64,000 bases of DNA from Sedimentisphaerales bacterium (GTDB lineage: Bacteria; Planctomycetota; Phycisphaerae; Sedimentisphaerales; Anaerobacaceae): the NCBI GenBank assembly GCA_963708075.1, contig OY970194.1, positions 2,976,001 through 3,040,000 on the forward strand. The letters are read 5' to 3'. Under the pieces are notes generated by a model. It saw nothing but the letters and a program-made list of their open reading frames with translations. It was not told where the DNA came from and ran no database searches. This document shows positions 26,761-39,230 of this stretch, piece after piece. A program made the translations under genes and the position numbers. Every line of letters begins with the position of its first letter. The stretch's first letter is position 1.

Positions 26761-28860
26761 TTACCGCATGAAGAGCATCTCGGCGTAGCTGGGCAGCGGC
26801 CAGAGGCGGGCATCGACAATGGTTTCGAGCTCGTCGGCGGTCGCTCTCAGGGCGGCCATGGCGGGGATCACCGCCTCATGGTAGCTCTCAGCCTGCTTCT
26901 GGGCGCCCTTGGTCTTGGCGGCTTTGGCCGTCGCCTGCTCCAGGGCTTCGACATGGCTTTGCATCGCCGTGATCAGGTCGCAGACCCGCGTGAGCAGGGC
27001 TTTCTGCGTTCCCGCGTTGACGCCGGCCTCGGAGACGGAGGTAACGGCCTTGCCCAGCCGGCGCGAGTACTCGCAGCAGGCGGGCAGGATCTGACGCTTC
27101 GCCATGCTCAGCATCGTCATGGCCTCCACGTGGATCTGCCGGCTGTAGACTTCGAGCAGGATTTCCGTGCGGGCTTCCAACTCCTGCTCGGTGAGCACGC
27201 CGTGCTTCGTGAACAGCGCCACGTTCTCCTTGGATGGGACGGTCTTGAGCGACTCGGGCGTCGAGCGAATGTTCCCCAATCCGCGACGCTCGGCCTCCGC
27301 CACCCATTCCGCACTGTAGTTATCGCCATTGAACACGATCCGGGCATGCTTGACCGCGACATCCTGCAGGATCTTCTGCGCGGCGGCTTGCACGTCACCG
27401 GCCTTCTCCAGCACATCGGCAATGTCGCTCAGGGCATCGGCTACGATCGTATTGAGGGTGAAGCTCGGCCCGGACACCGATTGCGACGAGCCTACCATGC
27501 GGAACTCGAACTTGTTGCCGGTAAACGCGAACGGCGACGTCCGGTTGCGGTCGGTGCTGTCCTTCGGCAATGGCGGCAGGGTCGAGACGCCGAGCTTGAG
27601 CTCCCCGCCCCGCTTGCTGCTCTTGGCGGTGCCCTTGACCAGTTGCTCGAAGATATCCGTCAGTTGCTCGCCGAGGAAGATCGACACGATCGCCGGCGGG
27701 GCCTCGTTGGCGCCGAGGCGGTGTTCGTTGCCCGCGTTGGCGACGCTCGCGCGAAGCAGCCCGGCGTATTTATCGACGGCAGTGACGACGGCACAGAGCA
27801 TTACCAGAAAGACCATGTTGTCGTGCGGCGTATCGCCCGGGTCGAGCAGGTTGGCCCCGGTGTCGGTAGCCATACTCCAGTTGTTGTGCTTTCCCGAGCC
27901 GTTGACGCCCGCGAACGGCTTCTCGTGCAGCAGGCACACGAACCCGTGCCGGCGAGCGACCTTCTGCAACGTGTCCATCGTCAACTGGTTGTGGTCGGCG
28001 GCCATGTTGATCGTGGAGAACACCGGCGCCAGCTCGTATTGAGCGGGAGCAACCTCATTGTGTTGCGTCTTGGCGGTGACCCCGAGCTTCCACAGCTCGT
28101 TGTTGACCTCGTTCATGAAGTTCGCCACGCGCTCGTGCAGGGACCCGAAGTAGTGGTCCTCCAACTCCTGGCCACGAGGCGGCTTGGCGCCGAAGAGCGT
28201 CCGGCCCGCCAGAATCAGGTCCAGCCGCTTCGTGTAGAACGATTGGTCAATCAGGAAATACTCCTGCTCGGGCCCCATGGTCGCGGTCACCCGGCGCACT
28301 GTCGTATTGCCCATCGCTCTCAGGACGCGCACCGCCTGCCTGCTCAGGGCATCCATGGAACGCAGCAGCGGCGTCTTCTTATCCAGTGCTTCGCCCCGGT
28401 AGGAGCAGAAGGCGCTGGGGATGTACAGCGTGATATTCTTGCCGTCCTCTTTGACAAAGACCGGCGAGGTGCAGTCCCAGGCGGTATAGCCGCGGGCCTC
28501 GAAGGTCGCGCGGAGTCCGCCGGAGGGGAAGGAAGACGCGTCGGGCTCGCCCTGGGTCAGCTCCTTGCCGCTGAATTCCATGATGGTCCTGCCGTCGGGC
28601 GTCGGCGAGATGAACGCATCGTGCTTCTCCGCCGTCAGGCCGGTCATCGGCTGGAACCAATGGCAAAAGTGCGTGGCGCCCTTGCTGATCGCCCAGTCTT
28701 TCATAGCGTTGGCGATCACATCGGCCGTCACCCGATCGAGCGGCTGCTCGCCATCCAGTGTCCTCTTGAGAGACTTGAACACGTTTTTCGGCAGGCATTC
28801 CCGCATCGTCGCTTCGTTGAACACATTGCGACCGAATTCACCTGTCAAGCAGACTGACAT
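26761..28860 (-). CDS. glnN: Glutamine synthetase type III
   Basis: HWFQPMTGLTAEKHD, GEPDASSFPSGGLRATFEARGY, NGSGKHNNWS, DRNRTSPFAFTGNKFEFR. Confidence 0.95.
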   Translation of the reverse strand: MSVCLTGEFGRNVFNEATMRECLPKNVFKSLKRTLDGEQPLDRVTADVIANAMKDWAISKGATHFCHWFQPMTGLTAEKHDAFISPTPDGRTIMEFSGKELTQGEPDASSFPSGGLRATFEARGYTAWDCTSPVFVKEDGKNITLYIPSAFCSYRGEALDKKTPLLRSMDALSRQAVRVLRAMGNTTVRRVTATMGPEQEYFLIDQSFYTKRLDLILAGRTLFGAKPPRGQELEDHYFGSLHERVANFMNEVNNELWKLGVTAKTQHNEVAPAQYELAPVFSTINMAADHNQLTMDTLQKVARRHGFVCLLHEKPFAGVNGSGKHNNWSMATDTGANLLDPGDTPHDNMVFLVMLCAVVTAVDKYAGLLRASVANAGNEHRLGANEAPPAIVSIFLGEQLTDIFEQLVKGTAKSSKRGGELKLGVSTLPPLPKDSTDRNRTSPFAFTGNKFEFRMVGSSQSVSGPSFTLNTIVADALSDIADVLEKAGDVQAAAQKILQDVAVKHARIVFNGDNYSAEWVAEAERRGLGNIRSTPESLKTVPSKENVALFTKHGVLTEQELEARTEILLEVYSRQIHVEAMTMLSMAKRQILPACCEYSRRLGKAVTSVSEAGVNAGTQKALLTRVCDLITAMQSHVEALEQATAKAAKTKGAQKQAESYHEAVIPAMAALRATADELETIVDARLWPLPSYAEMLFMR

Positions 28861-28935
28861 CTCGTACTCCTCAATAACCCCTGGACACACTACTATCTCA
28901 TCGAAGGAATGTTCGACCCGGCGCACCAAGCTCTC

Positions 28936-28964
28936 ATGCTATGCCCACCCTGCGGCCGTGTCAA
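28936..28964 (-). promoter_or_regulatory. Putative sigma70 promoter of glnN (proximal)
   Basis: TTGACA-17-TAGCAT. Confidence 0.6.
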
Positions 28965-29172
28965 CAGAACAGTCCGGCCGGACACAGTCGAACACCCGTT
29001 CCACGTCGTCTTCCCAAAACCTGCCCTCGTGCAAAAAGGAGCGAGGCTCGTGCCGCTCGGATATCCCCAGCAGAACGACCGGCAGCCTCAAGCCCCGCCC
29101 ACAACCCAATGCCAAAGATCGCATCCGCCCGGAACCCCGGGCAGGAATATCAGCCGATTCTGCACCCTTACG

Positions 29173-29189
29173 TACAAACCGCGTGCCAG
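29173..29189 (-). promoter_or_regulatory. Sigma54 -24/-12 promoter of glnN (distal)
   Basis: CTGGCACGCGGTTTGTA. Confidence 0.75.
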
Positions 29190-29276
29190 ACACGACCTGC
29201 AACGCAGAATTGCCGTAACACACGTCTTTTGGCACTTACAGCACAGGGTTCACGCAAGGCAGGCTGTGCAACTCCA

Positions 29277-29318
29277 TACATTTGTGTAGACTGGACAAGC
29301 AATAAGTACATTTTTGTA
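29277..29318. promoter_or_regulatory. Paired enhancer-like palindromes (glnN)
   Basis: TACATTTGTGTA (29277) and TACATTTTTGTA (29307), 30 bp apart. Confidence 0.75.
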
Positions 29319-37290: not shown

Positions 37291-37440
37291 TGTTTTCTCC
37301 TCTCCTGAATCCGGGCCACACTTTGGCCGCCCGATGCCTCCGTCGAACGGGTAACACCGCAAAGAGTACAGATATCGCCTGTCCTTGACTTCCAGCAGTC
37401 AGTATATCACATGCACGCCAGCCGGGTCAATCTCGCATAA

Positions 37441-37604
37441 GAGGCTCTAACAGAATGAGCCTTGCTTATGTCACCCCCGCGCAGGCGGGGGTCCAGAGCT
37501 TGCCCTCGCGAAGGCGGGGGATCGTTCGATAGGCGGCTGGATTCCCGCCTTCGCGGGAATGACATGTGGGCGACCTTGCCATATCTTCATTCTGTTAGAG
37601 ACCC
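37441..37604. mobile_element. MITE-like element carrying REP-type hairpins
   Basis: 14-bp perfect outer IR CTCTAACAGAATGA (37445-37458 / 37587-37600); inner GTCACCCCCGCGCAGGCGGGGGTCCAG...CTGGATTCCCGCCTTCGCGGGAATGAC. Confidence 0.65.
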
Positions 37605-37623
37605 AAAGAGAATCCACACAGGC

Positions 37624-39147
37624 TCAGATGTATTTCGGCAGGATGCCGTATTTTTTGATTTTGTAGCCGAGGATTCGCTCGGTGAGGCCAAGTTCCTGGG
37701 CAGCTCGCCGCTGCTGGCCGCCGCACTTCTTCAGGGCGTCCACGATCAGCTCGCGTTCCTTGTTGACAATGATCTCCGTGAAGGACGGCTTGATGCTCGT
37801 GTCGTCCTTGCGGATCATCTGCAGCGAAGGCGGAAGATGCTCGGAGCGGATCACGTCGTCCTCGCACAGCAGGACCGCTCGCTCGATGCAGTTCTCCAGC
37901 TCGCGGATGTTGCCCGGCCAGTGGTAGCGCGTCAGCGCCTCGATCGCGGGCGTGGAGATCCGCGTGATCCGCTTGCCGTTCTCCGTGGAGTACTTCTCGA
38001 GGAAGTGATCGGCCAGGAGCATGATGTCGTCCTTGCGCTCCCGCAGCGGCGGCAGGAAGATCGGGAAGACGTTGATCCGGTAGTACAGGTCCTCGCGAAA
38101 GTCTCCTTCTGTGATCTGTTTTTCCAGGTTCTTATGGGTGGCGACGATGATGCGGATGTTCGTCTTGATCGTATCGATGCCGCCGACGCGCTCGAATTCC
38201 CGGAACTGGATGACGCGCAGAAGCTTGACCTGCAGGTTCGGCGGGAAATCGCCGATCTCGTCGAGGAAGATCGTGCCGCCGTGGGCCCGTTCGAAACGGC
38301 CGAGCTTTCGCTCGACGGCCCCGGTGAACGCCCCTTTCTCATGGCCGAACAGCTCGCTTTCGAGCAGCGTCTCGGGCATGGCGGTGCAGTTGACCTTTAC
38401 GAAGGGCTTGTCCGCCCGCAGACTGTTGTAGTGGACGGCGTGGGCGACGAGGTCCTTGCCCGTGCCGCTCTCGCCGCGAACCAGCACGGTCGCGTTGCTG
38501 TCCGCCACCTGTTCCACGAGCCGGTACACCTCCTGCATCGCGTTGCTCGTGCCGACCATGTTGTGCACGGCGAATCGCGTCTTCAACTCGCGACGCAGCC
38601 GGAGGTTCTCATCTTGCAGGGATTTTCGCTCCGACTCCACGAGCTTGTTCAGCTTGATCGCCTGGGCGATCATCGTGGAGATGATATTGAGCAGATGCAG
38701 GCTGTCGTGGAAGTCATCGGCCCTGCCCGCCTGCCGGTCGATGCTCAGGGTCCCGACCGTCTTGCCCTCCAGCTTGATCGGCACGCAGAAGAACGCGGTC
38801 TTTTTGCCGTCATCGGCTCGGGACCGGGTTCTGTGGAGAAATCGCGGGTCCTTGGAGATATCGGGTACGACCATGCTCTCGCCGGTCTGGACGACCCGGC
38901 CGGTGATGCCCTCGCCGACCTTGTAGCTGCCCAGGCTCTTCGACCGCTCGCTCAGCCCGTGTGCGACCTTGATGTTGATCGTCTCGGTCTCCGGGTCCAG
39001 CAGCGTGATCGTTCCCCGTTGCCACTTGAGGTGCGTATCGAGCGATTTCAGGATGCTCTTGAGGGTCTCTTCCAGGTGCAGCGATTCCGCGAACGCCTTG
39101 GCGATATCACTCAACAACTGCACCTGTGTCGCAGACTTTGCCTTCAT
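37624..39147 (-). CDS. Sigma54-dependent activator, NifA-like GAF-AAA+-HTH
   Basis: GAF ([11 protein letters not shown]), [44 protein letters not shown], Fis-type HTH. Confidence 0.93.
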
Positions 39148-39176
39148 GTCCTGCCTTCTCCTTCGCTTGTGCTGTC

Positions 39177-39230
39177 AACAAAATTGTAACCTCAGCTTCA
39201 GAGCTTACAATTTTGTCTGCGTAAAGCCAA
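39177..39230 (-). promoter_or_regulatory. Activator's own sigma70-like promoter overlapped by paired palindromes
   Basis: AACAAAATTGTA (39177) and TACAATTTTGTC (39206); TTGGCT-17-TAAGCT at 39230-39202. Confidence 0.65.

Follow-up and report, generated by a model that had tools for sequence, protein, structure and literature searches.

A putative nitrogen-assimilation regulon of paired TAC-N6-GTA boxes, sigma54 promoters and a GAF-AAA+-HTH activator in a Sedimentisphaerales bacterium

We analyzed a 64-kb stretch of the genome of a Sedimentisphaerales bacterium (contig OY970194.1, positions 2,976,001 to 3,040,000; hereafter the window), in which genes for ammonium uptake and assimilation lie close to a gene encoding a GAF-AAA+-HTH activator of sigma54-dependent transcription. 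The genome is a single contig of 7.5 Mb and is 92.8% complete. The genes in question (Table 1) encode a type III glutamine synthetase (GS), an ammonium transporter, a P-II protein, a predicted outer-membrane beta-barrel and the activator; profiles and, for the barrel, a 12-stranded structure model bear out the names given to them in a first-pass annotation made from the sequence alone. glnN is the sole GS gene found in the genome (one PF00120 match), and tblastn found no complete ammonium transporter gene besides amtB. For glnN, the ATG at 28863, which has a ribosome-binding site (RBS), is more likely to be the start than the TTG at 28929. The barrel model, built from a 72-sequence alignment, reached a pLDDT of 92, compared with only 32 for a single-sequence fold, and its best fold matches are the outer-membrane channels FapF, COG4313, KdgM and NanC.

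Table 1. Genes, promoters and conserved elements of the locus (positions within the window).
Feature	Position	Strand	Basis
glnN, glutamine synthetase type III	26761..28863	-	PF12437, PF18318, PF00120
Conserved leader element, candidate cis-regulatory RNA	29033..29113	-	stem conservation, recurrence
sigma54 -24/-12 promoter, glnN	29173..29189	-	TGGCAC-N5-TTG match; kept in relatives
TAC-N6-GTA pair (29277, 29307)	29277..29318	no strand	top score among pairs of genome
glnK-type P-II	29526..29867	-	PF00543
amtB	29888..31264	-	TIGR00836 above cutoff
sigma54 promoter, amtB-glnK	31367..31383	-	TGGCAC-N5-TTG match; kept in relatives
TAC-N6-GTA pair (31473, 31503)	31473..31514	no strand	pattern and matrix scan
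Predicted 12-stranded outer-membrane beta-barrel	31593..32336	-	no Pfam family; structure model
sigma54 promoter, barrel gene	32493..32508	-	TGGCAC-N5-TTG match
TAC-N6-GTA pair (32595, 32625)	32595..32636	no strand	pattern and matrix scan
GLUG-repeat surface-protein gene, several frames	32690..37290	-	between activator and regulon
GAF-AAA+-Fis-HTH sigma54 activator, 507 aa	37624..39147	-	domain profiles
TAC-N6-GTA pair, 29 bp (39177, 39206), before activator	39177..39217	no strand	overlaps sigma70-like -35/-10

The pattern TGGCAC-N5-TTG occurs only three times in the window, every time on the minus strand, and the three sigma54 promoters, found where the first-pass annotation had placed them, have the part TGGCACGC(G/C)GTTTG in common. 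Each is preceded by two palindromic boxes. As had been reported, the boxes are 30 bp apart and the nearer one stands about 90 bp from the -24 GG (90 bp at glnN, 92 bp at amtB-glnK and 89 bp at the barrel gene). The palindrome, given earlier as TACA-N4-TGTA, is real, but TAC-R-W4-Y-GTA is the better consensus, because the box at 31473 reads TACG-N4-CGTA. A fourth pair had been noted before the activator gene and is indeed present, although its spacing is 29 bp and no sigma54 site accompanies it. It coincides with sigma70-like -35 and -10 hexamers on the minus strand (39210 to 39183), immediately ahead of the RBS of the activator gene. Because of this overlap and the missing sigma54 box, the 29-bp pair is likely a site of autorepression, as far as its placement can tell.

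To extend the search to the whole genome, we used a matrix trained on 50 promoter pairs of relatives, from which the loci of this genome were excluded. The training filter allowed spacings of 24 to 45 bp and distances of 90 to 115 bp, and partly imposed the core letters; among the pairs that passed, the spacing was 30 bp in 44 of 50 and the distance 99 to 104 bp in 47. The scan returned six pairs at 29 to 31 bp, four of them inside the window, against two over all remaining spacings from 20 to 45 bp. Every one of the six adjoins a nitrogen gene or one of two NifA-like genes. Two of them lie outside the window and had been missed in the first-pass annotation: one at G000 6770297, before the 5' stub of a second amtB, and one at G000 6769620, with a GGACT-family gene on one side and a second NifA-like gene on the other. 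At the second amtB, the pair and a strong sigma54 box make up a fifth complete promoter (L001 10297-10650, plus strand); the gene itself is a signal-peptide stub of about 45 first codons, then cut by insertion sequences. The GGACT-family gene (L001 9620-10239, plus strand) has a weaker sigma54 box together with its upstream pair and is likely a further regulon target. In addition, TAC..GTA pairs with boxes 43 bp apart occur about 54 times in the genome (for example at G000 397386 and 574726). They were rejected as regulon sites, as they lack the promoter geometry and look repeat-like, and are probably a repeat family.

The arrangement is conserved among relatives. The activator was matched at E 1e-100, a threshold that lets paralogs in, in 39 of the 41 genomes searched, its close homologs being named Sedimentisphaerales or Planctomycetota. 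Its orthologs often share a contig with glnN and amt, and synteny extends across the order. Phylogenetic footprinting showed that the pair geometry is kept at the relatives' activator, amt and some glnN promoters: of 30 orthologous activator loci, 28 have an upstream pair (spacing 29 bp in 25 cases, 30 bp in three), 21 of 29 amt loci also have one, and a sigma54 box is absent beside the activator-upstream pair in 29/30. Beyond the relatives, scanning species genomes with a strict pattern gave at least 125 stretches, of which 80 with flanks were analyzed, yielding 83 distinct matches. These 80 stretches belong to Planctomycetota, Spirochaetota, Desulfobacterota-type genomes, Lentisphaerota/Kiritimatiellota/Verrucomicrobiota, Acidobacteriota and FCPU426 (at least 5 phyla). 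The next gene was amt (n = 29), Gcw_chp-like (n = 21; two called by Pfam, the others by BLAST to these two), GS (n = 17), P-II (n = 6), nif-type (n = 3), gltB (n = 1) or glnD (n = 1), which together follow 78 of the 83 matches; four were followed by other genes and one by none that could be called. Paired boxes were also seen before nifH, nifB and a homocitrate-synthase-like gene (L132, L118 and L104, from a sulfate reducer, a planctomycete and a spirochaete). The nif promoters of two of the genomes (G009 and G038) carry neither the TAC-N6-GTA nor the TGT-N10-ACA motif.

Two genes of the locus stand somewhat apart. The barrel gene is present in only 2 of the 41 genomes and belongs to a family common in Omnitrophota; in relatives, a Gcw_chp-like gene stands under the same kind of promoter, and the barrel gene appears to replace it. 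The GLUG-repeat gene, in whose region the matrix scan found no motif pair, is an insertion outside the regulon. A palindromic repeat-like stretch (37470-37570) lies directly past the activator gene.

The enhancer had been considered new-looking after comparison with the NifA and NtrC sites only; it is not new. TAC-N6-GTA is the published consensus of AnfA, which binds two such sites, as shown for the R. capsulatus protein (PMC7294313), and it is the core of the site GTAC-N6-GTAC suggested for VnfA (PMC7294313). The same core is shared by sites predicted for DVU1949 of Desulfovibrio vulgaris, such as TTTACAATTATGTAAC (PMC4641369), and a new motif is thereby ruled out. That study describes DVU1949 as a single-component activator that also regulates its own gene and whose nine target operons serve nitrogen metabolism and transport (PMC4641369). 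No further precedent for the regulon was found in the searchable literature, although RegPrecise, bioRxiv supplements and the majority of subscription papers, which lay beyond the search, may describe it. The targets of DVU1949 are reportedly amt-glnB, glnN, glnA and gltBD. In supplement 2 of PMC4641369 the row labels seem to have slipped, since the sequence given under DVU1949 belongs to the C-terminus of the plasmid-encoded DVUA0143. The row labelled DVU0569 matches a Desulfovibrionaceae class in which, by eye, iorA- or iorB-like genes precede in 10 of 15 loci. Because iorAB is the context given for DVU1949 in that paper, we infer that this iorAB-linked class would be the DVU1949 type. At 30 Desulfovibrionaceae loci the TAC-N6-GTA core was counted 37 times in the region preceding amt, versus 5 in coding DNA, with a looser pattern, the strict sigma54 pattern having matched few amt promoters. 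The two regulons have in common a one-component sigma54 activator, autoregulated there and probably so here, nitrogen operons as targets and sites with an ACA-W4-TGT core. On the other hand, the Desulfovibrio sites are A/T-flanked and their spacing is not fixed (often 41-52 bp, or a single site), whereas here both the 30-bp spacing and the distance of about 100 bp are fixed.

The activator itself has an intact GAFTGA motif, a recognition helix reading TERILGYK and one cysteine among its first 190 residues. It scores 553 on TIGR01817 (cutoff 529) and has the domain order of proteobacterial NifA, but the NifA helix reads TPRQ(V/I)xYR, nif genes are absent here, and the four promoter regions hold only two scattered matches to TGT-N10-ACA, none conserved. 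In a tree of 36 rows picked from 69 (LG+G4, root not inferred), the activator falls into a clade (99/98) with the motif-linked activators, the iorAB-linked class and four activators with a cysteine motif, three of which stand beside anf genes. NifA and the DVUA0143 class form a separate group (86/94), and this split recurs in two further trees. Approximately unbiased (AU) tests were run with LG+G4 on 19 rows, the groups having been picked after earlier trees were seen. They rejected a clade of the activator with canonical NifA (p-AU 0.009) and its placement in the DVUA0143 class (p-AU 0.035); a sister relationship to the anf-linked group was borderline (p-AU 0.05), and one to the DVU1949-type class, represented by the iorAB-linked proteins, was neither established nor rejected (p-AU 0.4). 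With the latter the activator shares the helix pattern RI..YK.KKY and about 45-48% protein identity. AnfA and VnfA, for which the anf-linked activators stand in, since no characterized sequence was found among plasmids, likewise combine a GAF-AAA-HTH architecture with two TAC-N6-GTA sites per promoter, the sites having been shown for R. capsulatus AnfA. They differ in the N-terminal cysteine motif, seen in the anf-linked proteins and absent from the activator, and in their alternative nitrogenase targets (anf or vnf), which were not found in this genome. As the root of the tree was not inferred, the idea that AnfA arose from assimilation activators is put forward only as a hypothesis.

A further conserved feature, overlooked in the first-pass annotation, lies in the glnN leader of about 300 nt. 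This element of about 80 nt consists of a 5' segment (GGCATTGGGTTGT), a 12-bp closing stem (29089-29100 pairing with 29039-29050), variable inner hairpins and a U-rich tail. Its position varies and its reading frame is not fixed; a conserved small open reading frame was rejected because frames differ among relatives. Taken over 24 sequences, 97.6% of the cells of the closing stem are paired, G-U included, with two of the 12 pairs changing on both sides and seven on one; the covariation score was reached by 0 of 500 shuffles, although kin are not independent. Of 23 genomes from the same genus 22 have the element, against 0 of 17 others, and a second copy in this genome (L001 6158-6233, minus strand) precedes an operon of MTHFR-like and glutamate-synthase-like genes. 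When metagenomes were scanned for the 5' segment, 94 stretches came up with 79 distinct matches, in 52 of which the partner arm is paired at 12/12 positions, as opposed to 0 of 60 shuffles. Among 71 matches with enough downstream DNA, 25 precede glnN, 16 an MTHFR-like gene (with one more by eye) and 7 gltB (assigned by eye, one checked with Pfam); the other 22 are followed by another gene or too little sequence. Comparison with Rfam 15 gave no credible match even at lax thresholds, and no description of the element was found within the same limits of the literature search. Glutamine riboswitches (glnA and Downstream-peptide motifs) are likewise structured leaders tied to glutamine synthetase biology, but the element matches none in Rfam and differs from them in architecture. 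In relatives' glnN leaders a hairpin TGCAC-N6-GTGCA, similar to the NtrC site apart from lacking one base, stands just before the element (for example at L043 1304-1323); it is absent in the window.

Judged by its conservation, the leader element is likely a regulatory RNA, and its U-rich tail, together with a 5' segment resembling the left arm of the stem, would permit an attenuator switch. We give an even chance to the alternative that it is a passive structure (an mRNA-stabilizing or processing stem, or a weak terminator) or a small repeat rather than a sensing RNA. Its near-confinement to one genus would suit such a role, as would the freely varying inner part, the many weak extra matches in some genomes, the metagenome matches without a glutamine or glutamate gene in the available DNA (22/71) and a fold of the whole leader that does not outdo shuffled sequences (z -1.1). 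These are to be set against an unpaired 5' segment that is nearly invariant, a stem whose pairing is held through G-U and two-sided changes, and an element that precedes three non-homologous gene sets tied to glutamine or glutamate metabolism (49/71).

The remainder of the genome is consistent with a regulon without nitrogen fixation, as had been proposed: no PF00148 match and no full NifH were found in it, and nitrogenase scored above cutoff in only 3 of the 41 genomes. No NtrC was found above cutoff either (best score 450, cutoff 559). GlnD was found neither in this genome nor above cutoff among the 41. The genome has rpoN (by motif) and nine sigma54 activators were found. Only one of the others is of the GAF type, a KaiC-like + GAF + AAA+ activator (L001 6933-9261, minus strand) of a family of the genus, which lies beside the MTHFR-like/glutamate-synthase-like operon. 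Its recognition helix differs, and it is frameshifted before the HTH (a real change or an assembly error) and intact in relatives; a motif pair stands upstream of it.

Overall, the neighbouring GAF-AAA+-HTH activator very probably drives a sigma54 nitrogen-assimilation regulon through the paired boxes, in line with the initial proposal; conservation, geometry and the tree point to it as the most likely binder. It would bind both boxes of each pair when nitrogen is short and turn the genes on. As is established for enhancer-binding proteins in general, two dimers about three helical turns apart would nucleate the AAA+ ring, and a DNA loop of about 100 bp would bring this ring to the sigma54 holoenzyme. 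Through the 29-bp pair the activator would repress its own sigma70-type promoter, its GAF domain would keep it off, and the glnN leader element may add a second control at the RNA level. The system would fill the role of enterobacterial NtrBC-GlnD and work like the DVU1949 regulon.

The signal that reaches the GAF domain is less clear. The P-II protein has Glu at position 51, where GlnZ has the uridylylated Tyr51 (by alignment), and keeps Gln39 and Lys58; planctomycete P-II sequences, among the matches listed, mostly lack Tyr51 as well. Since Tyr51 is missing and GlnD was not found, glutamine sensing via GlnD and P-II uridylylation is unlikely. Inhibition of the GAF domain by unmodified P-II, released as 2-oxoglutarate rises, is the most likely route, although we put it at somewhat less than even. 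P-II belongs to the regulon with its effector residues kept, and control by P-II via GAF is reported for AnfA, from the same large clade, which escapes P-II inhibition without its GAF-Q part (PMC12093980). A more tentative alternative keeps the activator on the boxes but has its GAF domain sense 2-oxoglutarate or glutamine directly, without P-II. The closest solved GAF domain, that of Aquifex aeolicus Nlh1, is called activated by an unknown ligand in a review, where this NifA-like activator is thought to serve nitrogen assimilation rather than fixation (PMC9866876), and a direct glutamine sensor would close the gap left by GlnD. Compared with enterobacterial NtrBC-GlnD, the target classes, the paired enhancer sites and sigma54 are the same, but here there is one component without a receiver domain, no GlnD was found, Tyr51 is missing and the site is another: GCAC-N7-GTGC had only near-matches in the promoter regions, single or overlapping sigma54 boxes.

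Several observations weigh against the adjacent activator as regulator. Only 11 of 29 glnN loci of relatives have a pair within 700 nt; many of the remaining glnN genes may be co-transcribed or have a promoter more than 700 nt away. In one fragmented genome, G007, glnN and amt are present while the activator has no close match. The sigma70 overlap of the 29-bp pair is partly inherent in the motif, which by itself resembles -35/-10 hexamers, and the pair scores on both strands; this weakens the case for autorepression. The DVU1949 motif is itself a prediction, and the class was assigned to DVU1949 by inference. Against a simple family picture, paired boxes were not clear at the anf promoters of four loci with the patterns used, and the nif promoters of G009 and G038 had neither motif. 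Finally, seven other sigma54 activators and the best NtrC score leave room for a receiver-type activator. That such a two-component protein, encoded elsewhere, binds the boxes and has the adjacent activator as one target is nonetheless highly improbable: several REC-AAA-HTH proteins are present, one of them reaching 450 bits on the NtrC model, but the activator-upstream pair lacks a sigma54 site (29/30) and the activator is therefore not an activated target, activators of the same clade adjoin the motif in several phyla, and related activators whose site is known or predicted share TAC-N6-GTA.

The regulon itself is of a described kind; what is added is a family that crosses phyla, the link to AnfA and DVU1949, a setting free of GlnD and a candidate leader RNA. 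We consider it rather unlikely that the leader element is a new nitrogen-sensing RNA class (its signal being glutamine, glutamate or 2-oxoglutarate) controlling the GS and glutamate synthase genes of a lineage without GlnD, in addition to a TAC-N6-GTA activator family, independent of GlnD, that would serve many anaerobic phyla as their general nitrogen regulator and be the source of AnfA and VnfA. In this analysis the AnfA sites, the DVU1949 prediction and the 'NifA' annotations of nif-less genomes come together as a single widespread family. A 'NifA' call in a planctomycete, a spirochaete or a sulfate reducer should therefore not be taken to indicate nitrogen fixation. The paired box with a sigma54 site is a precise probe for nitrogen-starvation genes of uncultured anaerobes, and nitrogen sensing without GlnD can now be tested with two small proteins.

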